A stretch of DNA of 61,751 nt, filler included, from 5 parts of 5 records of this genome joined end to end with filler, not necessarily neighbours in it; one strand, 5' to 3'; shown: positions 8,169 to 43,577, counted from the first letter of the whole stretch. The notes: generated by a model from the letters alone, not told the origin. Translations and numbers: made by a program.

Positions 8169-8268
8169 NNNNNNNNNNNNNNNNNNNNNNNNNNNNNNNN
8201 NNNNNNNNNNNNTTAATTAATTAANNNNNNNNNNNNNNNNNNNNNNNNNNNNNNNNNNNNNNNNNNNN
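8169..8268. other. Artificial contig linker
   Basis: N-run / TTAATTAATTAA / N-run, 100 nt in total. Confidence 0.99.
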
Positions 8269-8276
8269 CAACTGGT

Positions 8277-11200
8277 TCAGATTTTGGGGTCCATTATAAG
8301 TATTGAGAGCAGATTGTTTACGACTTCTTCAATGTCCTGAAGTTTAATTCGAATATTTTTCACATCAAAACTCTGGGAAAATCTGCACAATTCAGTTCCG
8401 CAGTTAATCAGTTTCAGAATATTATGTTCTTTTCCCAGGGATTGCAGGCTATTTCCAAACCCTCTGATTTCACCCATTGTCATGGCCCCCTGCAAAGGCC
8501 TTAAAGACGGTATGACATCGTTTTCCAGGGAAGACAACAATTGGGATGGGTTGGCAATGTCTCTAAAAGAGAGTTCCTCGACCATAACATCGCTTTTCAA
8601 ATGTTCCTTTTTATTGGTACGACAACTCAGATAATTCGATAATTCCGCAAAGAGCCTGCTTATTTTAACAGGCTTCGAAATATATACGTCAAACCCTTTC
8701 TCTAATATTTCAGCCCGTTCAATGGATGTTGCAAATGCCGTCACGGCAAAAACGGGAATGTTTCTTGTTTTTAGATTGGCTTTCAGCCGCCTTGTCGCTT
8801 CAATACCGTCCATTCCCGGCATTCTTATATCCATCAGAATAATATCGGGTTGATATTCTCCCGCGATAATCAAGGCTTCCTGCCCGTTTTCCGCCGTAAG
8901 AACATCCAGATTGACCTGGGCAAGCAACTCCTTCAGCAGAATGCGATTGTATTCAACATCATCCACAACCAATATTTTCGCCTTTTCAAAAGAGATGCTC
9001 TTTGCGTTTAAAGAATCTTCCTCTGAGGTCACTATATCCGATACGGAAATTTCCACGTCCCGAAAGGTGACTTGGAAAAGACTGCCCTCACCATACCGGC
9101 TCTTGACCGAGATCTGACCGTTCATCATCTCCGTGAGTCTTTTGCATATGGTAAGCCCCAGTCCCGTACCGCCGTATCGGGTTCTATGCATGGCGTCTTC
9201 CTGACGGAATGCTTCAAAAATGGATTCCAGTCCTTTGTCCGATATTCCGATGCCTGAATCCTCCACCGATATGATAACGTCCGTTTGATCCGGCTCATCC
9301 AGAGTGTAGATCTGTTTCGCTGAAAGGCGGATATGCCCCTTTTCCGTAAATTTTAAGGCATTGCCCACAAGGTTGAGCAGAATCTGCCTGAGTCTTGTTT
9401 CATCGAGCATAAGCGGATAATTCAGGTTATTATCAATCTCAACGAGAAACCGAAGATTTTTTTCTTCCGCCTTCATTCGGAATATCTGTTCTATCTCCTC
9501 GAAAATCACTTGCAGATGTACCGGAGTGTATTGTATATCCATTTTCCTTGCCTCGATCTTTGACAGGTCAAGGATATCGTTTATAAGGGTTAACAGGTTT
9601 TTTCCGGATGTTTTTATGGCATCAAGATAACTTTTTTCCTTGTCATCGGAAACAATGGACGATAAGAATTCACTGAATCCCGTCACGGCATTCAGAGGCG
9701 TTCGCAATTCATGACTCATATTCGCAAGGAATTCGCTCTTGGCCCGGTTGGCGGTTTCAGCGTCTTCTTTTGCTCTGATCAGCGCCTTTGTACGCTCTTC
9801 AACAAGTTCTTCAAGGTGATCACGGTGTTTTTTCAGTTCATCCTCGGCATTTTTACGCTCGGTTATATCCACGATTACACCATCAAGCCATAGGAATTCG
9901 CCTGTATCATCGAAAATGCCATTCCCTTTTTCATGAACCCATTTGATGTTTCCGTCCCTGGTGACGATACGGTATTCAATGGTATACGGCCTCATGTTCA
10001 TTACACTATCGTGAACAAAGCGGATAACGAAGTCTCTGTCTTCAGGGCAAATGATGCTGGCAAAAGAACGCACTTCATTTTTAACAAAATCCCCGGCAGG
10101 ATACCCGGATATTTTTGTCACCTCTCCGCTGACAAATTCCATTGTCCAATCAGCGTCATTTGCACATCGGTAAACGATTCCCGGAATATTGTCAACCAGG
10201 GACCTGAATCTTTTATCAGAGATTCTAAGGGATTCTTCAGCCCGTCTTCGTTCGGCGTTTTCAAGTTCCATTGCCCTGATTTTATCCTGTATGACATGCC
10301 GCATATGTGAAAAACTGCCCGCCAGCCGCCCCAGTTCATCCGTCCTTTCCTCATCCAGCTGTATATCATGACCGCCGAATGCCATATGATTTGCCGCTTC
10401 TGCAAACTTATTCAGTGGAACGGCTATCTGTCTGTGAAGTACCATATAAAGAATATATATCTCTATCAGCAGGGAGATAACCCCAAGTATCAGAATCAAA
10501 CTGGCTGTACTGAAAGCCCGTTCTTCAATAATCGACATGGGAAAAACAGTCATGAAATACCAGTCGGGCTCGTCTATTCTGGTTACTGCAATATATTCGC
10601 GACTGCCTGGGTTCGCCAGGACTGTCGTGTGGGACGGCTTGTTTGTAACGAGTTCAAATATGCTTTTCAGGTGCAAATCACCGGATTTCATGATATCAAA
10701 GACCCCTCTGCCGGCCTGAATTTCTTTCATTTTTTCCGGATGGGCAATGAGACGGCCGTCAGATCGGAAAATAATGTTATATGCGCCATCAAGATGGTCA
10801 TGAATTGCCCGTTCAAGCAGTTCATTCAGGGTAACGTCATGACTTATCGTTGCAATCTGCTTGCCAGCCATATATACAGGCGTTGAGCAGGAAAGCATAA
10901 ACAGTTTTGATACATCATCAAGAAAAAGCCCTGTCCAGACTGTTTCACGAGAAGGATTATGCCGGTGATCGGCAACCCAGACATATTCTTCATCAGGCAT
11001 ATATAAATCCGTTGTCGCCTTCTGACACCAATCGGGTTGCTCCGGCCAGTAAACGACCATAATATTTTCCGGTGTTGTTATATATGTGTCCTGAAACCGG
11101 TTATGCCATGCCCGTCCGTAACTGTTGCACAATTTGTAAAAAGTAATGACGCGTCTGCGAATCTCGGCTTCGATTTCCAGGTTTTCATCAATATAGACTC

Positions 11201-11928: not shown

Positions 11929-12462
11929 ATGAAATTGAAAATTCTCATAACCGGAGAACCGGGGGTTGGTAAGACGACTCTCATTAAAAAATTGTCCGAC
12001 ACACTGGGTAACTATTCCATAAATGGATTTTACACCCAGGAAATCAGAGACTACGGAAAAAGAAAAGGGTTTGAGTTGAAAGGATTCAACAATGAAACCG
12101 CCATCCTTTCCCATGTAAACATTCAAACGGCATTCAGGGTTGGAAAATACGGTGTGGATATTTCAGCTTTTGAATCATTTCTTGATTCCATTGATTTTTT
12201 CAGTTCTGAAACCGAACTGATTCTAATAGATGAAATTGGAAAAATGGAATGCTTTTCCTCAAGATTTACCCATCTTATCCAGGATATTTTTCAAAGGGAC
12301 AGGCCTGTTATTGCAACCATTGCCTTGAAAGGATCGGGTATCATTTCAAAAATTAAAAACCGGCCAGATATACGGATAATTAAAATCACCAGGGAAAACA
12401 GGAATCAAATTCTCAAAGAATTGCTCGAATCCGTTCATATGAAAATCATTAAAAAGAAGTAA
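11929..12462 (+). CDS. THEP1/NTPase_1-family nucleoside triphosphatase
   Basis: ILITGEPGVGKTTL, GFYTQEIR..GKRKGF, RVGKYGVD, LILIDEIGKME. Confidence 0.9.
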   Translation: MKLKILITGEPGVGKTTLIKKLSDTLGNYSINGFYTQEIRDYGKRKGFELKGFNNETAILSHVNIQTAFRVGKYGVDISAFESFLDSIDFFSSETELILIDEIGKMECFSSRFTHLIQDIFQRDRPVIATIALKGSGIISKIKNRPDIRIIKITRENRNQILKELLESVHMKIIKKK

Positions 12463-13435
12463 AAAAGATACAAAGGCTTTTTACAAGTTGTGCCATGAAC
12501 CCAAAATCCAGATACTCCATGGAATCGGTCCGAAGATGATAGCGGGGATTCCGATAAAAAGCCGTATCTGTAATCATGACCGCCTTATACCCCTGATTCC
12601 AGAATGATGTGTGGTCGCTGAGCCTGACATTTGGAAGCAGAAAACCGCTCAACGGCACCGTCAGCTTGACCACTGGAAGATCAGGATTTGTTTCAAAGGC
12701 TTTAAATAGAGCGTCGGTAAATATTCTTGATTTGAAGTTTCCAACGATCCCGATAAAATCACCTGTTTTCGGGTAGCCCAAAAACATGAGTGGAAATGGA
12801 TACGCCTGGCACCCAGGTTCATGGCATGTATATCCCACCATCTCAAGACAAATCATGCCATCAATTTTCTCATTATGCTTTTTCGCCTCCCGGGCATAGA
12901 CTCTGCTTCCCATGAAGCGTGTCCCGTATACCGGGGGTTCCTCCAGGGCAAAAGATACAAACTTGACGGCAAGATCGATATTCTGTTTTTCTTTTATGCT
13001 GGCCAATTCCCTGGCGACTTCCATCTGTACTGCAACAGCACTGGCATTGTCATCGGCTCCGACAGTTCCCGACACAGAGTCATAATGTGCACCAACCAGA
13101 TATACAATCGACGGATTGGAACCAAGATCAATCCTGGCAACAATGTTAGCAACGGTTTTTTTTCCATAGGCATACGGTTTACGGTCAGGTGCAATGTTGA
13201 TCGTCCTGTAAAAAGATTCAATGTAGTCCGCTGTCCTGTCAAGGTTGTCCGGTTTGTAAACACTTCGCTCACCAATGGTTTTGGTAAGTTCTTTAACATG
13301 CTTTTCAAGGCGTTGTCCGGTCTTCTCGATATCAATCATACGATCCTCTCTGCCAATGCATAAACCGGATGGAATGATAGGGAATATCATTAGGAGAAAA
13401 ATCACAACGGGTTTCATCCAACCCGGACAATTCAT
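12449..13435 (-). CDS. M28-family metallopeptidase with N-terminal signal/anchor
   Basis: VGAHYDSV, GADDNASAVA, LEEPP, CLEMVGY, RLSDH, YH. ATGA overlap with the upstream gene. Confidence 0.88.
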   Translation of the reverse strand: MNCPGWMKPVVIFLLMIFPIIPSGLCIGREDRMIDIEKTGQRLEKHVKELTKTIGERSVYKPDNLDRTADYIESFYRTINIAPDRKPYAYGKKTVANIVARIDLGSNPSIVYLVGAHYDSVSGTVGADDNASAVAVQMEVARELASIKEKQNIDLAVKFVSFALEEPPVYGTRFMGSRVYAREAKKHNEKIDGMICLEMVGYTCHEPGCQAYPFPLMFLGYPKTGDFIGIVGNFKSRIFTDALFKAFETNPDLPVVKLTVPLSGFLLPNVRLSDHTSFWNQGYKAVMITDTAFYRNPRYHLRTDSMEYLDFGFMAQLVKSLCIFFTSF

Positions 13436-14412
13436 AGGGAAAGGTTCAATGCCAACAAGCGTTTCAATTTGTACGCTGTTTTCAGGGCCGTATCTTTCAA
13501 TTCCCGACTTAAATAACCCGATTCGAAAGACCGTTTCAGGTCCTCTTCGTCAATGATGGCAACTTTTCCATCCGGCCATCGGACAACATCAATTTCCAGG
13601 TCCACATATCTGATTTTGTCAGGATATAATTCAATCATGGTGTTGATGTTATAGTATTCGCCGATAAGCCGCCCATCCCGGCGAAAATAGGCGTGCTTAT
13701 AAAACCAATTCCCTTCCCTTAGCTCACTGATAGCATAATCTCCCTCTTTTTTGGGAAGATTCAGTCCGTCAAATTTGCTCCCCCCCTTAAACATTATTCG
13801 CTTGAGCATGAGTTTTCCCTGCTCCGGATTTGATCCGATAATTTCGCCCGGGGAAAGAGAAAGAACCTGACCGCTTGATTTCACATGGTCAATGCCGATC
13901 TTTTTTCCTTTCTTCAGCCGATCCCAGATCAATCGTCTGGCTGCGTCCCGACTGATGCTCTCTCTTCTATCGGAATGAATTAAAAGCTCCCGGGACTCCA
14001 CCTCATCGACATAATCAGAGTCAATGAGCCGCAACCGATGATGATTCAGTACCGTGGTCACAACCCTGTTCCTGAAATCATCTAATCTGGATTTTGCCAG
14101 ACAAGGAAATTCAAACTGCATAAAACCGGGGAGAGCCTTTCCGTCTTTTCGACAGATGGCATCAAAAAAAGCCTGTCGAATCAACTCCGCCACATGGGTT
14201 AATTGTTCCGGATTACCTGCCAGGATAATTCCCTGTCCGTCTTCCTTGTCCTCGATTTCCACTCCAATGGGCTTATGGAATTCAAATTTGCTGAAATTTC
14301 CGAATCGATCCATAATTGGCTGTGAGGGATCCACAATCGTTAACCCATTCTCTAAAAAAAAACGTGTCAATGCGGTGGAATAGATCCCTCTTAATTTCAG
14401 CGTCACGTCCAT
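13432..14412 (-). CDS. FAU-1 (AU-binding RNase)-like protein with a C-terminal DUF402 domain
   Basis: N-terminal LRGIYSTALT..IVDPS, central EFP..AKS.LD..RN.V..T..HH, C-terminal GEYYNINT.IELYPD..RYVDLEIDVVRWPDG..IIDEEDL. All resemble archaeal FAU-1. Confidence 0.8.
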   Translation of the reverse strand: MDVTLKLRGIYSTALTRFFLENGLTIVDPSQPIMDRFGNFSKFEFHKPIGVEIEDKEDGQGIILAGNPEQLTHVAELIRQAFFDAICRKDGKALPGFMQFEFPCLAKSRLDDFRNRVVTTVLNHHRLRLIDSDYVDEVESRELLIHSDRRESISRDAARRLIWDRLKKGKKIGIDHVKSSGQVLSLSPGEIIGSNPEQGKLMLKRIMFKGGSKFDGLNLPKKEGDYAISELREGNWFYKHAYFRRDGRLIGEYYNINTMIELYPDKIRYVDLEIDVVRWPDGKVAIIDEEDLKRSFESGYLSRELKDTALKTAYKLKRLLALNLSL

Positions 14413-15479
14413 TATTCTCTCCGATACCCAATCCCTTTGATTCGAACCAGATTGTTCTTAACTTCTGCCTTTCCTCCGAGTATCTTTTCAATCAACCACA
14501 GCCTCGCTCTGATATGATCCGTCATTTTCGGGATCAAATAAGCACTCCAACCTTCAGCCAAAGCCATAAAGGGGATGACCTGATCTGCCAGATATCTATC
14601 GACCGTGGCCCCCCTCCGCAAATCATCAATGAGTTGTTTCGCTACGCGTTTACCGATAAATTCGGCCGACCTTCTCAGTGCGCCGGCCATATCCGATCCG
14701 ATCAAACACCCCGTATCCGTTCGGGCCCAGATGGCCAGGGAAGCTCCGGCCTGTACGGAAGCCTTCCGATAAACAGGAAACTCCCGGGTATCGTATAAAA
14801 CTTCTATTTGGGGATTATATCCCCTGGCGATTAATTTTTTTTGACATTCCCCTGCCATTCGTTCCGAAACCTTTCTCCCTTTGAGCAGGGATGATAAGGC
14901 GACTCCTTTAATTTCTGTTAATTCACCTTGATCCGTTAAGGTCAGAGGTTTTAAGTGTTTCTTTAACGGATTGACCATCACTTCAATTTGCCCCTTGCCT
15001 TGAGGCACATAACCCGGCCGGCTGATCGTCAGATCAAGATCAGCCCCCATTTCTCTCAGGAGCGGCACTAATACATATTTTAAATGGTATACAGAAGGAG
15101 CAAAATCCTGAAACAGTCCGCCTGAAATTTTATAATTGGAAGGACCATCTGCAAATAAAGCCAAAGGCAAGACGCATAAAGCCAGCATCGTGGCGGAGCC
15201 GGCGGTTCCGATATCCCAATTGAAATGGCCCCCCTTTATTTGTCCTCCGGGCGTAAATGTGATTTCTTTTGATCCGAGTTTTGATCCTTCCAACCGGCCT
15301 CGGCAAAGTTGAGCCGATGCCTCAAGCCCCTTCAGGTGTTGCGCCCTCAACCCCGGCTTATCTCTTTTGGCCCTGATGTTTTTTAAATAAAGATTTTTTC
15401 CAACCAAAACCGAAAATGGCACCGCATCCCTGACGATAGTTCCGGAGCCTGATTTTTGACTGCCATCGATCTCTATCAT
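14412..15479 (-). CDS. rtcA: RNA 3'-terminal phosphate cyclase
   Basis: IEIDGS, IRAKRDKPGLRAQHL, IGTAGS, PGYVPQGKG, DRYLADQ..PFMALA, catalytic His in MTDH. Likely start is ATG 15479. Confidence 0.9.
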   Translation of the reverse strand: MIEIDGSQKSGSGTIVRDAVPFSVLVGKNLYLKNIRAKRDKPGLRAQHLKGLEASAQLCRGRLEGSKLGSKEITFTPGGQIKGGHFNWDIGTAGSATMLALCVLPLALFADGPSNYKISGGLFQDFAPSVYHLKYVLVPLLREMGADLDLTISRPGYVPQGKGQIEVMVNPLKKHLKPLTLTDQGELTEIKGVALSSLLKGRKVSERMAGECQKKLIARGYNPQIEVLYDTREFPVYRKASVQAGASLAIWARTDTGCLIGSDMAGALRRSAEFIGKRVAKQLIDDLRRGATVDRYLADQVIPFMALAEGWSAYLIPKMTDHIRARLWLIEKILGGKAEVKNNLVRIKGIGYRRE

Positions 15480-15988
15480 TTTCAATCTGTCCTTCATAAA
15501 AATTAATGCAACTTGCCTGAAGCCGATTGCGGCTTCCATTTATCCGAAGGGCGGATGAACCTTTGCCATTCTGCGAACAAGATCGAAGGTCTTTTAAAAT
15601 TCAAAAAGTATGTGAAAAAGTGTTTTAAGTTTCATCTCCATATAGATGCATAATGTGCAGGATCATCCGAAAAAGTCAATAATTTCAGGGTGGAGAATAT
15701 TTTTTTTGAAGGACGGGTGTCTGTTTTTTATTTCAATAATATTTTGATCAAGTCCGGCGTTACATTTTTTCTTTTATATTTTTGTTAACAATAAGCAACG
15801 GCCTCATCCCTTAAAGTCATGAGTTTCATTACATAAAAAATATGTAATTTACTCCACACTATTATTTCCATAACCATCCTCCGTGCCAATTTCCAACAAT
15901 TACTTTTGTTAAAATTCCAGTCTAACAAAACGCCGCAATACCGATATAAACCGTACCCTGAAAAACTCTACCTCAATCAAGCAACTTC

Positions 15989-16004: not shown

Positions 16005-16077
16005 ACAGCAATAATCATTAACAGTTAACAACTGATGGATGTTATCACAAAAACAAGCCAGACATAGGGTTTTAATC

Positions 16078-17652
16078 ATGAGTTTGAATTACGATAAAAT
16101 AAGTCAAAAGGAAGAATCGCCTCAAACATCGATGAGCTCATACAGCGATCTTTTTGCGGCCCTTGCTTTTATTTTTCTCTTTCTATACGTGATATCTGCC
16201 CTCCAGCTGAGCCTTGAAACCATCTCATCGAGGATTGAATTCAGTAAATTTGAAACACAGCTCAAGGAGTACGAGGTAATCGCCCAGGAGGAAGATACGG
16301 CTTTTGAGGATGAACCCAAAGAGATTAACCTTGAAAAGGTTCTTACACGACTGACGTTACTGGAGAATAAAGCCCGGGAGGCTGCAGAGGATTTTGCCCG
16401 GCAGATCAGCTCGTACCAGGAGAAGGAGAAAGCGCTTCTCAACAATTACCAGACGGTATTCAAACACATAAAAAACAGAAACAACTTTCTGGCCACATCT
16501 TTGTCGCAGCAGAAAATCATCAACAATCAGAACAAAATCGAATTTGATGAATTCCTTAATCGAGAGAGAGAAAAATATCAGGAGGATATAATTGAGGCCC
16601 GCAACCAGATAGCACTGCGGGAAAAGGAGCTTGAGGACCTGAGTGAGACCTCGGAAAACATTGCCCGGAGCAACGAAGAACTGCAAATGCTGGCGGAATC
16701 TCTGGAAGAGAAGATGAAAAGCCAGGAATCGGAGCTGATATCCCTGGCATCGGAAAAATCGGATATTGCCGAAGACAAAGAAAGGCTTCAAATGGCCCAG
16801 GCAAAACTCAGGCAGGAGTTGTCTGAAAAACAGGGCCGTGTGAAAGAGCTGATAAAAGCAAAAGAAATAGGTGATGCGGAAAAAAAGAGACTCCTCGCAG
16901 CCCAGAATAAACTTGAGGATGACCTGAACCGCAGCATGGTCCTTTTACGGAAACAGGAGAGGGATAGACAAAATGCCGTTGCGGAAAGAAACCAGCTGGC
17001 AGTTGTTCAGAGAAAGCTTGAAACACAACTGGGTAAAAGCAGAGCCAGGATAGATCGCATCGAAAGAGACAAGAAAGCCGCCATTACAGAAAAGAAGAGA
17101 CTGGCCGCCCTCCAGAAAAGCCTTGAAAAAGAGTTGGGAAAAAGCAAGACAAAATTAAAAATCATGGAGAAAAAAAGACGTATTGCCAAAGCTCAAAAAG
17201 AAAAGCTCTATGATGCCCATAAAAAACTTTCGGACGACCTGAAAAAGAACAATGCCCGCCTCCTCGCCCTCAAAAAGGGTAAGAATGCCGAGACAGCCGA
17301 TAAAAAGAAACTTATCGCAGCTCAGAACAAGCTCAAAAATGAACTCCTGAAAACGGAAAAGAAGCTTCAGGGCATGGAAAAAATGAATGCAAAGGCAGAT
17401 GCTGACAAAGAAAAACTCCTCGCAGAGAAGCAAAGGGTCCAGCAGGAGCTGGGGGAAAGCAAAGCCAGATATCAGGAAATGGAAAAGGACAAGGCGAATG
17501 CTGATGCTGAAAAAGAGAGACTGGCAGCCGCCCAGAAAGCACTTGAAGATGAGTTGAATCAGACGGCTGACAGGCTCAAGGATATAGAAAAAATGAAAGA
17601 AGCTTCAGATGATGAGAAAGACCGGCTCATTGCCGCCCAGGAAGCGCTTAAG
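16078..17652 (+). CDS. MotB-plug-like membrane-anchored protein with a long repetitive coiled coil, 3'-truncated
   Basis: SSYSDLFAALAFIFLFLYV resembles the MotB TM motif with the conserved Asp and is followed by a continuous heptad pattern. The ORF runs into the N linker. Alternative start at 16039. Confidence 0.7.
16768..17652 (+). repeat. About 8.5 degenerate 35-aa (105-nt) coiled-coil repeats
   Basis: Units such as DAEKKRLLAAQNKLEDDLNRS.., ITEKKRLAALQKSLEKELGKS.. and DAEKERLAAAQKALEDELNQT.. recur every 35 codons. Confidence 0.85.
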
Positions 17653-17752
17653 NNNNNNNNNNNNNNNNNNNNNNNNNNNNNNNNNNNNNNNNNNNNTTAA
17701 TTAATTAANNNNNNNNNNNNNNNNNNNNNNNNNNNNNNNNNNNNNNNNNNNN
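17653..17752. other. Artificial contig linker
   Basis: N-run / TTAATTAATTAA / N-run. Confidence 0.99.
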
Positions 17753-32650: not shown

Positions 32651-32750
32651 NNNNNNNNNNNNNNNNNNNNNNNNNNNNNNNNNNNNNNNNNNNNTTAATT
32701 AATTAANNNNNNNNNNNNNNNNNNNNNNNNNNNNNNNNNNNNNNNNNNNN
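32651..32750. other. Artificial contig linker
   Basis: N-run / TTAATTAATTAA / N-run. Confidence 0.99.
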
Positions 32751-42151: not shown

Positions 42152-42561
42152 TGATAAAACAACCACCCAACATATTAATAATTAGGTCGCAAAGGTCTGA
42201 ATTAAAACGAGTTGAACAATTTATAAAAGAAATATTTTCTTATTATAATTTTAATGAAGCTTGTTTTAATAAAGTATTATTATGTGTTTCAGAAGCTACC
42301 ATTAATTCTATTATTCATGGAAATAAGGAGGACGGAACAAAAAAAGTAGAATTAAACGTTAATTGCAAAACGCATATTATAAGTATTAATATAACAGATG
42401 AAGGGCAAGGTTTTGATACCACTTCAATTCCGGATCCGACACATTCTGACCATATTTTAAAGGAATCGGGAAGAGGGATACATATAATAAGAAACATAGC
42501 AAGAAGTGTTTGGTATAATGAAAAAGGAAACAGTTTAAGATTTGATATAGAATGTAAATGA
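42151..42561 (+). CDS. RsbW/SpoIIAB-like HATPase protein (anti-sigma-factor-type kinase)
   Basis: EATINSIIHGN, ITDEGQGFD, ESGRGIHII. Confidence 0.85.
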   Translation: MIKQPPNILIIRSQRSELKRVEQFIKEIFSYYNFNEACFNKVLLCVSEATINSIIHGNKEDGTKKVELNVNCKTHIISINITDEGQGFDTTSIPDPTHSDHILKESGRGIHIIRNIARSVWYNEKGNSLRFDIECK

Positions 42562-42995
42562 GTTCAATAACGTTTTTTTTCGAGGATATTGCTAAAATAT
42601 CAATTAATGAAAATGATCTAAAGGATAAAGTTAAAGAGTTAATAATCAATGAAAAAAAGGTTCTAGGTAACATTTCAGTCATATTTTGTTCAGATGACTA
42701 TTTGCTGGAAATCAATAAAGAATATCTAAATCATAACTATTATACGGATATAATAACTTTCGATTACGTTGAGAAAAACGTAATTTCGGGCGATTTATTT
42801 ATTAGTATGGATCGAATAAAGGAAAACGCAAATGACTTTAAAGTAATAGTAATAAGGGAGTTATACAGAGTCGTTTTTCATGGAGTGTTGCATTTGGTAG
42901 GTTATAAAGATAAAAAGGATGAAGAACAGGCTTTAATGACTTCAAAAGAAGATTTTTATTTGTCTAAGGTTGATTTCAAGGAATATAAGATATGA
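42558..42995 (+). CDS. ybeY: rRNA maturation RNase YbeY
   Basis: IN..YLNH.YYTDIITF, GDLFIS, HGVLHLVGYKD. Confidence 0.93.
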   Translation: MSSITFFFEDIAKISINENDLKDKVKELIINEKKVLGNISVIFCSDDYLLEINKEYLNHNYYTDIITFDYVEKNVISGDLFISMDRIKENANDFKVIVIRELYRVVFHGVLHLVGYKDKKDEEQALMTSKEDFYLSKVDFKEYKI

Positions 42996-43477
42996 TTCAA
43001 AAGTATGATGTTATTGTTGTAGGAGGAGGACATGCGGGATGTGAAGCAGCAGCTGCAGCAGCTAACCTGGGTTCAAATACTTTATTGATTACAATGGATA
43101 TGACCAAATATGGTCAAATGTCGTGTAATCCGGCGATGGGCGGTATAGCAAAAGGTCAAATTGTACGCGAAATTGATGCGTTAGGCGGCTATTCAGGGAT
43201 TATAGCAGATAAGACTACGATACAATTCAGAATGCTAAACAAGTCAAAAGGACCGGCAATGTGGAGTCCAAGATCGCAAAATGACCGATTTAGGTTTGTT
43301 GAAGAATGGCGTGAAATTTTAGAAAGTATAGATAATCTTGATTTATGGCAGGATGCTGTTACATCATTAATTATCAATAATAACTCGGTAAAAGGGGTTA
43401 AAACAAAAATCGGGATAGAATTTTTTTCCAATTCGGTTATTTTAACCAATGGTACTTTTCTAAATGGATTAATGCAT
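42992..43477 (+). CDS. mnmG: tRNA U34 modification enzyme MnmG/GidA, 3'-truncated
   Basis: VVGGGHAGCEAA, MSCNPAMGGIAKGQIVREIDALGG, LNKSKGPA. Confidence 0.97.
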
Positions 43478-43577
43478 NNNNNNNNNNNNNNNNNNNNNNN
43501 NNNNNNNNNNNNNNNNNNNNNTTAATTAATTAANNNNNNNNNNNNNNNNNNNNNNNNNNNNNNNNNNNNNNNNNNNN
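43478..43577. other. Artificial contig linker
   Basis: N-run / TTAATTAATTAA / N-run. Confidence 0.99.

Follow-up and report, generated by a model that had tools for sequence, protein, structure and literature searches.

The stretch of DNA analysed here (61,751 nucleotides; hereafter the window) carries an rtcA gene directly upstream of a gene for a DUF402 protein, and our results point to the latter as a short homologue of the ribonuclease RNase W/FAU-1. The window is made up of five contigs with four joins, each formed by the linker N44-TTAATTAATTAA-N44, and the locus in question lies on the contig at 8269–17652 (9.4 kb). Profile matches from Pfam and NCBIfam placed four open reading frames (ORFs) at the coordinates, and in the families, that a first-pass annotation of this DNA had claimed. 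They are listed below with the codons and domains on which our argument draws, Pf denoting residues of the P. furiosus FAU-1/RNase W protein.

11929–12462, plus strand: THEP1-type nucleoside triphosphatase (NTPase) (PF03266, E = 4e-47, 160.5 bits; NF010248, 173.6 bits against a cut-off of 156)
12449–13435, minus strand: M28 peptidase (PF04389, E = 1.7e-25, 90.4 bits against a cut-off of 21.3)
13432–14412, minus strand: DUF402 protein of 326 residues, short RNase W/FAU-1 homologue (PF04167, E = 2.5e-17)
13468–13905, minus strand: DUF402-type catalytic domain of that protein, residues ~170–315, with the RNase W active-site set aligned
14122–14145, minus strand: short hairpin at the insert site, residues ~90–97, where the alignment passes from Pf 94 straight to Pf 245 between query residues 97 and 98
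14412–15479, minus strand: rtcA, 355 residues from the ATG at 15479 (PF01137, E = 5e-68, 229 bits; PF05189, 55.7 bits)
14514–14516, minus strand: codon of His322 of RtcA, the histidine predicted to accept AMP, aligned with 'itnHlktniw' of P. horikoshii RtcA
15438–15452, minus strand: codons of S10-G11-S12-G13-T14 of RtcA, which replace the canonical E-G-G-G-Q

The rtcA frame is open back to 15539, and homologues begin with MIEIDGS, which corresponds to 15479. Its product scores 304.8 bits against TIGR03399 (cut-off 250), falls below the cut-offs of two narrower NCBIfam RtcA models (scores of 273 and 158, cut-offs of 352 and 333), and has P. horikoshii RtcA (4o89, E = 8e-52) as its best match in the PDB. 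The stop codon of rtcA (TAA, 14414–14412) and the start codon of the DUF402 gene (ATG, 14412–14410) have base 14412 in common, forming the TAATG junction that the first-pass annotation had described, and the two genes are very probably co-transcribed. RtcA enzymes convert an RNA 3'-phosphate, and more slowly a 2'-phosphate, into a 2',3'-cyclic phosphate (PMC3854526, PMC4174438), and the question raised by this arrangement is what the DUF402 protein does beside such a cyclase.

The first-pass annotation had called the DUF402 protein FAU-1-like, and a search of solved structures agreed, matching it to P. furiosus FAU-1/RNase W (PDB 8rza, 8wo8) with E = 1.4e-62. RNase W is described as a protein of five domains, among them an N-terminal central domain, a helical bundle and a divergent DUF402 domain with RNase activity (Vayssieres et al. 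2024; PMC11602121). The alignment to 8rza falls into two stretches, query residues 2–97 with Pf 6–94 and query residues 98–315 with Pf 245–464, and the Pf residues between them (95–244), an S1/5'-sensor insert of ~150 residues, have no counterpart in the window protein. Our AlphaFold2 model of the window protein, built on a 22-sequence alignment, has a mean predicted local distance difference test score (pLDDT) of 92.9 and a predicted template-modelling score (pTM) of 0.89; at the insert site it shows a hairpin over residues ~86–101, with strands at 86–89 and 97–101 and a dip in pLDDT to 78. In Foldseek searches the model found 8wo8 (E = 1.3e-32, template-modelling (TM) score 0.89 on the query), 8rza (E = 4.5e-32) and 8rzf (E = 6.2e-25). 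Long forms of the family match PF10150 (RNase_E_G) at ~152–265, and neither the window protein nor a short Bathyarchaeia form has such a match.

Because the residue numbers of Pf in PMC11602121 are those of 8rza, the correspondences can be read directly off the alignment. All ten active-site residues of RNase W, whose roles were assigned in that paper, align with the window protein, with a single T-to-S substitution: H326→H176, K328→K178, R355→R205, D364→D215, T378→S229, Y391→Y242, N404→N255, D420→D271, D424→D275 and D437→D288. H176, K178, R205, Y242, N255, D271 and D275 are invariant in 22 bacterial homologues and D215 is nearly so, and the last catalytic position alternates among these sequences between D288 and the neighbouring E289. 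The residues of the central patch (R10→K6, R12→R8, T17→T13, R40→R36, R261→R114, H271→H124, H272→H125 and K275→R128) are likewise mostly invariant or nearly so in the 22 homologues. Nuclease activity of the short protein is a prediction from its sequence.

An NtdP-type nucleoside diphosphate (NDP) phosphatase was considered as another identity for this gene and rejected. The window protein scores 24.9 bits against NF049996 (cut-off 280) and 26.1 bits against NF010183 (cut-off 213), and at 326 residues it has extra domains compared with the ~170–180 residues of NtdP-type proteins; in Foldseek, stand-alone DUF402 phosphatases align with no more than the C-terminal half of the model. NtdP/Sa1684 of S. 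aureus, FomD and SC4828 have the beta-barrel DUF402 fold and an acidic metal site in common with it (TM scores to the target of 0.56–0.68), whereas the window protein adds N-terminal domains and the RNase W-specific H176/K178 and D215. Since the NtdP model falls so far below its cut-off and the RNase W residues are kept, alignment and model together identify the gene as a short RNase W and not an NDP phosphatase, and the refuting case named in the first-pass annotation, a protein that is only such a phosphatase, can be dropped. Relatives are numerous: a word-indexed search returned 226 homologues of 179–571 residues, the best 120 of them nearly all of 318–344 residues and some labelled in their source, for example as 'protein associated with RNAse G/E' or 'probable ribonuclease FAU-1'. 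A profile search of 1.84 billion representatives gave 333 clusters with E ≤ 1e-30, a number that rises to 500 with E ≤ 1e-10 and to 783 with E ≤ 0.001. The best 150 clusters include both proteins that align in one stretch (~313–367 residues) and proteins that align in two (~438–520 residues).

The same fold raises the possibility that the DUF402 protein works with RtcA as an RNA-end phosphoesterase, either a 2',3'-cyclic phosphodiesterase or a 3'-phosphatase, so that the two enzymes interconvert ends. DUF402 is a phosphohydrolase fold, and the Foldseek matches of the model include Sa1684, FomD and SC4828 at E values of 1e-9 to 4e-7. In the RNase W crystal an RNA 3'-phosphate occupies the active site, where DUF402 phosphatases hold their terminal phosphate, and the options listed by its authors were cleavage as an endo- or exonuclease, release of a terminal 3'-phosphate and resolution of a cyclic phosphate (PMC11602121). 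Moreover, the short form is without the S1/5'-sensor insert that is thought to feed long RNA into the site. On the other hand, the isolated DUF402 domain of RNase W has strong RNase activity that is lost in D424K, and the equivalent residue, D275, is kept in the window protein; the same report records that no phosphatase activity was detected on RNA or nucleotides, with data not shown there (PMC11602121). A cyclase paired with a cyclic phosphodiesterase that regenerates the 3'-phosphate would also waste ATP. We therefore regard a phosphoesterase role as unlikely, and a nuclease role as the better guide to the locus.

Whether the pairing of rtcA with RNase W extends beyond this contig was examined in 160 loci of relatives, in which neighbours were found by tblastn with the four window proteins. 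Half were the best 80 of 255 relatives' loci in a species-representative genome collection and half the best 80 of at least 362 relatives' loci in metagenome contigs; the two sets overlap in some records (L003 and L090, for instance, are the same contig). Bacterial and archaeal labels were read from record titles. A locus was scored as non-adjacent when no rtcA was found with at least 1.2 kb read upstream, and the remaining loci were not assessable.

Bacterial-labelled genome loci (n = 59): rtcA adjacent at 37, no rtcA at 16, not assessable 6
Archaeal-labelled genome loci (n = 21): rtcA adjacent at 1, no rtcA at 16, not assessable 4
Metagenome loci (n = 80): rtcA adjacent at 31, no rtcA at 26, not assessable 23

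Among assessable loci, rtcA adjoins RNase W at 37/53 bacterial genome loci and 31/57 metagenome loci. At the 37 bacterial loci rtcA lies upstream on the same strand in 31, divergently in five and downstream in one. Across the survey the gaps are mostly 2–80 bases, and adjacency is kept in Chloroflexota despite a change of orientation. The sole adjacent locus with an archaeal label (L015), a contig of 2.7 kb, falls among bacterial sequences in the trees described below. Relatives that retain the pair reach down to ~44–50% identity in RtcA and 35–40% in RNase W, and they span at least five bacterial phyla, by label, as well as Bathyarchaeia. In the closest relative, a Desulfobacteraceae metagenome-assembled genome (L001; 81% RNase W and 90% RtcA identity), the pair is present and its flanks differ.

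Two genome samples provide a view of the pairing that starts from whole genomes. In a 301-genome sample of the phylum of L001, 105 genomes have RtcA and 11 have RNase W; among the latter, four have RNase W adjacent to rtcA, one has both genes on different contigs and six have no RtcA at E ≤ 1e-10. Co-occurrence is thus not obligatory in this phylum, but genomes with both genes nearly always (four of five) have them side by side. In a 151-genome sample of Bathyarchaeia, RNase W is found in 50 genomes and RtcA in 142, and rtcA lies directly upstream of RNase W on the same strand in 25 of the 50, by coordinates compared by eye with long forms included. Twenty of these 25 loci were fetched, and adjacency was confirmed at all 20. 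The linked Bathyarchaeia genes encode both long RNase W (466–502 residues) and short or intermediate forms (338–378 residues), and five archaeal genomes with short forms have one RNase W match each. Adjacency in this genome only was named in the first-pass annotation as a result that would refute its reading; with 37/53 bacterial, 31/57 metagenome and 25/50 Bathyarchaeia occurrences it is not so confined, and it goes far beyond chance.

Several lineage-specific arrangements were seen around these genes. In Syntrophobacteraceae the order is lpxK-rtcA-RNase W (L043, L062, L067, L068, L078), and in relatives (L047, L049, L058, L061, L066) rtcA is missing and lpxK stands close upstream of RNase W, which looks like a deletion of rtcA; two genomes with this rtcA-less arrangement have no RtcA at all. 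One bacterial clade (L023, L024, L025, L027, L030, L033) has a MerR-family regulator directly upstream of a short RNase W, with rtcA absent there and often a B12-binding radical SAM gene downstream. At four Bathyarchaeia loci with an unlinked short RNase W (L048, L053, L071, L077), a Clp1-type P-loop gene lies three genes away on the other strand; such genes belong to the polynucleotide 5'-kinase family and thus place another RNA-end enzyme near RNase W. The Bathyarchaeia genome G454 encodes two RtcAs (L186, L198), one linked and one unlinked with a long branch, and at G431:C33:6901-7191 the RNase W match beside rtcA is no more than a short remnant, which contains two TAA stops.

The RtcA sequences themselves separate according to their neighbour. 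In the canonical enzyme of P. horikoshii, G13, R17, R36, R39, Q47, H48 and H307 comprise the residues that bind the terminal 3'-phosphate together with the AMP-accepting histidine, His307 (PMC4174438). All 65 RtcAs that we compared keep the equivalents (G13, R17, R36, R39, Q47, H48 and H322), and His322 is invariant also in a separate alignment of RtcA homologues. With its 3'-phosphate-binding residues and nucleotidyl histidine kept, the window RtcA looks active, and in domain layout it matches canonical RtcA (P. horikoshii 4o89, E. coli 1qmh/3tut). Its N-terminal loop differs from the canonical one, reading S10-G-S12-G-T14 and not E-G-G-G-Q, and positions 10, 12 and 14 are among the columns that separate linked from unlinked RtcAs. 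Counting all N-terminally complete hits, with some linked rows duplicated between collections, these three positions are S/S/T in 72/74 and S/S/A in 2/74 linked RtcAs, and E/G/Q in 20/20 unlinked ones. A further 16 RtcAs from the phylum sample comprise 13 with E-G-G-G-Q and three with S-G-S-G-T. The canonical glutamate is presumably Glu14 of E. coli RtcA, reportedly the only protein ligand of the catalytic metal during adenylylation (Chakravarty et al. 2011); if so, the linked subfamily may differ in its use of metal or nucleotide. A signature of their own points to specialisation of the linked RtcAs.

Trees tell a similar story. The first-pass annotation had proposed phylogenies of all four genes; ours cover RtcA and RNase W. 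The RtcA tree (IQ-TREE quick mode, LG+C20, unrooted) has 65 rows, of which 25 are linked bacterial sequences (complete ORFs from 38 linked genome-locus RtcAs plus the window), 20 are linked Bathyarchaeia sequences, and 10 Bathyarchaeia and 10 bacterial sequences are unlinked. All 45 linked RtcAs form one clade, with a Shimodaira–Hasegawa-like approximate likelihood ratio test (SH-aLRT) support of 100, separate from the 20 unlinked ones; its members besides the window RtcA are 24 bacterial and 20 archaeal RNase W-linked sequences. The bacterial half (SH-aLRT 100) and the archaeal half (99) are each monophyletic. Labelled phyla are mixed in the bacterial half, indicating that the pair has moved between bacterial lineages. 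From these sequences a single old transfer of the linked pair between bacteria and archaea is likely, in either direction on this unrooted tree; the first-pass annotation had tentatively drawn it from archaea. For RNase W, two trees were made, both without three fragments; the second also omits 15 rows that are near-duplicates or have long branches. Within a clade (99) of long forms, the archaeal genes linked to rtcA group together (99). Short forms are nested among long forms at least three times, so that loss of the insert is recurrent and the bacterial short RNase W is best interpreted as the product of a deletion. Among the short forms of bacteria and the unlinked ones of archaea, deep branches have low support.

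These trees also bear on whether the adjacency reflects no more than common descent and joint horizontal transfer, with the two enzymes acting on separate substrates outside any shared pathway. The mixing of bacterial phyla in the RtcA tree implies that the pair moves and may be hitch-hiking, both genes stand apart in many genomes, and the unit is patchy, with RNase W in 11/301 genomes of the phylum sample. Hitch-hiking of this kind fits less well with a pair that is kept at the low identities given above (RtcA ~44–50%, RNase W 35–40%) across at least five bacterial phyla and Bathyarchaeia, that has persisted through a change of relative orientation, and whose flanking genes already differ in the closest relative. 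The subfamily signature of the linked RtcAs, in pointing to specialisation, argues for a coupling of rtcA and RNase W beyond joint transfer, and we consider separate substrates distinctly improbable.

Our results therefore favour a model in which rtcA and the short RNase W form a conserved, co-inherited and mobile two-gene module for RNA 3' ends, consisting of a nuclease and its dedicated cyclase, and we put the probability of this model at roughly 0.6. Functional coupling of RtcA and RNase W, taken by itself, is a claim that we hold with good confidence. FAU-1 was found to cut at UA and to leave products unshifted by phosphatase, which were read as 2',3'-cyclic phosphate and 5'-OH ends (Ikeda et al. 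2017; PMC5627344). Because the chemistries of both proteins involve a 3'-phosphate or cyclic phosphate, RtcA and RNase W would handle the same kind of 3' end. In the module as we picture it, the RNase W-type nuclease would cut single-stranded RNA, perhaps a spacer of a ribosomal RNA (rRNA) precursor by analogy with Haloferax, and the dedicated RtcA would keep or restore the cyclic phosphate on the newly made 3' end. That phosphate might mark or protect the end, or keep it ready for an RtcB encoded elsewhere. The short RNase W has lost the S1/5'-sensor insert while retaining the metal-binding active site and the phosphate-binding central patch. An order of cutting first and cyclising afterwards is something we propose with less confidence than the coupling, and RtcA and RNase W may also touch one another physically.

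A more intimate partnership can also be envisaged, in which the S-G-S-G-T RtcA would serve as the end-sensing subunit of a two-protein ribonuclease, binding a 3'-phosphate end and delivering it to, or activating, RNase W. If this were so, the condition of the 3' end would govern cutting, much as RNase E senses 5'-monophosphates at the opposite end, and in the short bacterial forms RtcA would replace the substrate selection of the lost S1/5'-sensor insert, which is treated as the regulatory and substrate-recognition part of RNase W (PMC11602121). We offer this as a speculative variant that is probably wrong.

A number of observations weigh against the model of a nuclease with a dedicated cyclase. 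The link between the genes is facultative, as each is often found without the other. The rtcA neighbour is missing at 16/53 assessable bacterial genome loci and 26/57 metagenome loci; five genomes with unlinked bacterial loci comprise two without RtcA and three with a canonical RtcA elsewhere, and the six RNase W genomes of the phylum sample without RtcA at E ≤ 1e-10 make up more than half of the 11. The 25 of 50 Bathyarchaeia RNase W genes that do not stand beside rtcA consist of 20 high-scoring short forms, three long forms and two fragments. No rtcA neighbour was seen at the fetched RNase W loci of Thermococci, Asgard and Methanocellales, with five fetched Thermococcaceae/Thermococci loci showing no rtcA within their flanks. 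Conversely, the three S-G-S-G-T RtcAs added from the phylum sample have no RNase W in the 1.5-kb flanks that were fetched, and of their genomes two have no RNase W match and one has RNase W on another contig. No fusion of RtcA with RNase W was found among proteins of 572–2000 residues, which is weak evidence; a 692-residue open frame considered as a fusion candidate was rejected as a spurious frame over an amidohydrolase gene. As for the chemistry, serine in place of the canonical glutamate could mean that the cyclase activity of the linked RtcAs is altered or lost, and the end chemistry of RNase W comes from the gel-shift and phosphatase argument of one paper (PMC5627344) and could not be defined in the structural one (PMC11602121).

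Comparison with known systems helps to place the pair. The RNase W/FAU-1 proteins of P. furiosus, S. acidocaldarius and H. volcanii (8rza, 8wo8, 8rzf) have their domains, the ten active-site residues and the central patch in common with the window protein, whereas the latter is without the insert of ~150 residues (RNase G/E-like), is bacterial and is encoded directly behind a dedicated rtcA. The family was called archaea-specific both in 2024 (PMC11602121) and in a 2025 survey (PMC12641178). The archaeal pathway in which EndA leaves cyclic phosphate and 5'-OH ends for ligation by RtcB/Archease likewise combines a nuclease and an Rtc-family enzyme on structured RNA precursors, but here the nuclease is of the RNase W type and the linked Rtc enzyme is a cyclase, not a ligase. 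Haloferax RNase W acts on the product of this EndA/RtcB cut-and-join pathway, and the archaeal family is tied to rRNA maturation (PMC11602121). In the rtcR-rtcB-rtcA operon of E. coli and Salmonella, RtcA is also encoded with another enzyme for 3'-phosphate or cyclic-phosphate ends, but that partner is the ligase RtcB, whereas the present one is a nuclease, RtcB is encoded elsewhere in relatives, and the linked RtcAs form their separate S-G-S-G-T clade.

The ligase and the regulator of that operon had figured in the first-pass annotation, according to which bacterial rtcA normally sits with rtcB and rtcR and the present system would work without a ligase. The first of these statements does not agree with Das and Shuman, who put rtcA-rtcB linkage as the exception among bacteria. 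As to the second, it is true that the contig has no rtcB or rtcR: Pfam searches found no RtcB or RtcR domain in the 48 window ORFs that they covered, which are all those with 90 residues or more except one that runs into a linker (16039–17700). This absence says little because the contig is only 9.4 kb long, and RtcB is encoded elsewhere in 5/5 relatives' genomes searched, which runs counter to a ligase-free system. An E. coli-type rtcBA operon was itself rejected as a description of the locus: rtcB does not adjoin rtcA, the scanned ORFs of the window include no RtcR, and 71 linked loci show no consensus sigma-54 promoter ahead of rtcA. At 15869–15884 on the minus strand, 409 bases upstream of rtcA, the window does contain a look-alike of a sigma-54 -24/-12 element (TGGCACGGAGGATGGT) with two mismatches in its -12 part.

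The operon of E. coli and Salmonella is a stress-induced RNA repair operon (PMC3854526), and this, together with the patchy distribution and mobility of the pair, could suggest a conflict or stress module in which a toxin-like RNase acts against transfer RNA (tRNA) or rRNA, for example during phage attack, while RtcA heals the ends, as in rtcBA ribotoxin repair. Such a module is very unlikely in our view. Neither RtcA nor RNase W has a match in PADLOC, where THEP1 gave only weak P-loop hits, and no recurrent mobile-element or defence neighbours were seen; the missing RtcR and sigma-54 consensus do not suit it either, and the archaeal family is associated, as noted, with rRNA maturation.

The remaining two genes of the locus had been included by the first-pass annotation in a four-gene, ligase-free system. 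THEP1 and M28 are convergent and, as that annotation had it, overlap at their 3' ends, by 14 bases (12449–12462). Its other overlap, ATGA, was borne out in part: an ATG at 13435–13433 does overlap the DUF402 stop codon (TGA, 13434–13432), but this is not certain to be the M28 start, because a second in-frame ATG at 13417–13415, 18 bases downstream, opens a more typical hydrophobic leader (MKPVV...). The M28 gene is probably co-transcribed with the pair in the window, yet it lies outside the conserved unit. The possible start-stop overlap and the convergent overlap are what speak for a four-gene system, along with the fact that THEP1, like RNase W, belongs to a family best known from archaea. 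The survey contradicts it: by tblastn, THEP1 occurs at 0/160 related loci and M28 at 1/160 (L057, 6 kb from the RNase W gene), and window queries found neither in the genome of the closest relative. The hydrophobic leader of M28 suggests export, the alternative start would abolish the overlap, and RtcB in all five relatives' genomes searched speaks against the ligase-free premise. A system of all four genes is accordingly highly improbable, and M28 and THEP1 are local bystanders. The THEP1-type NTPase has a P-loop, GEPGVGKT, at residues 9–16, and the best PF04389 stretch of the M28 peptidase spans only profile positions 1–102 of 193.

Nor did any further gene recur across lineages when all ORFs of the 80 genome loci were clustered, LpxK (Syntrophobacteraceae), MerR (one clade) and DUF72 being local. 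Within the 9.4-kb contig no structured RNA matched Rfam at E ≤ 0.1, and promoter-like and terminator-like sites were no commoner than in shuffles. In the closest relative, two identical 77-base tRNA-Arg(TCT) genes (941–1017 and 10702–10778) bracket the pair within a segment of 9.7 kb; beyond these tRNA genes identity drops, and no integrase was found between them. Across the linked loci, a tRNA of any kind lies near the pair at 3/38, none recurrent.

One implication of our study is that a conserved partner nuclease offers a concrete and testable role for RtcA, whose chemistry is well known and whose physiological role is unsettled; Das and Shuman 2013 described its reaction as apparently wasteful from the viewpoint of RtcB. 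We found no publication that joins RtcA with RNase W, FAU-1 or DUF402 in the searchable literature, with ~1.7 million PubMed Central articles outside its reach. Our study adds the grouping of linked RtcAs in one clade, their S-G-S-G-T signature, the repeated loss of the insert and the test of pairing in an unbiased Bathyarchaeia sample. The pairing extends RNase W to several bacterial phyla and points to an end chemistry worth testing, and the short form is a natural minimal RNase W, with the inhibitory central patch kept and the 5'-sensor gone, that would be useful for dissecting regulation. The linked RtcAs, with a changed nucleotide/metal loop that has no earlier description, are of enzymological interest in their own right. 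Genetics should be possible, since locus L068 comes from a named isolate genome and thus from a cultured carrier.

The rest of the window contains the following features.

303–971: C-terminal fragment of HipA at a contig start
6682–7884: YhcG/DUF1016 PDDEXK nuclease
8169–8268: artificial contig join N44-TTAATTAATTAA-N44, left limit of the 9.4-kb locus contig
17653–17752: artificial contig join N44-TTAATTAATTAA-N44, right limit of the 9.4-kb locus contig
32651–32750 and 43478–43577: further artificial joins
42558–43477: ybeY followed by mnmG (GidA), the latter cut by the contig end

Divergent from rtcA, at 16039–17652 on the plus strand, lies a long Lys/Glu-rich, coiled-coil-like ORF that is cut by the contig end; its C-terminal half consists of repeats of ~35 residues ending in ...AAQ..L..EL, and it has no PADLOC match. 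G+C content is unequal among the pieces of the window (~0.42–0.45 at 8–32 kb, 0.29–0.37 over much of 33–56 kb), and later pieces carry TonB-dependent receptors and HmuY; the pieces may derive from more than one organism.

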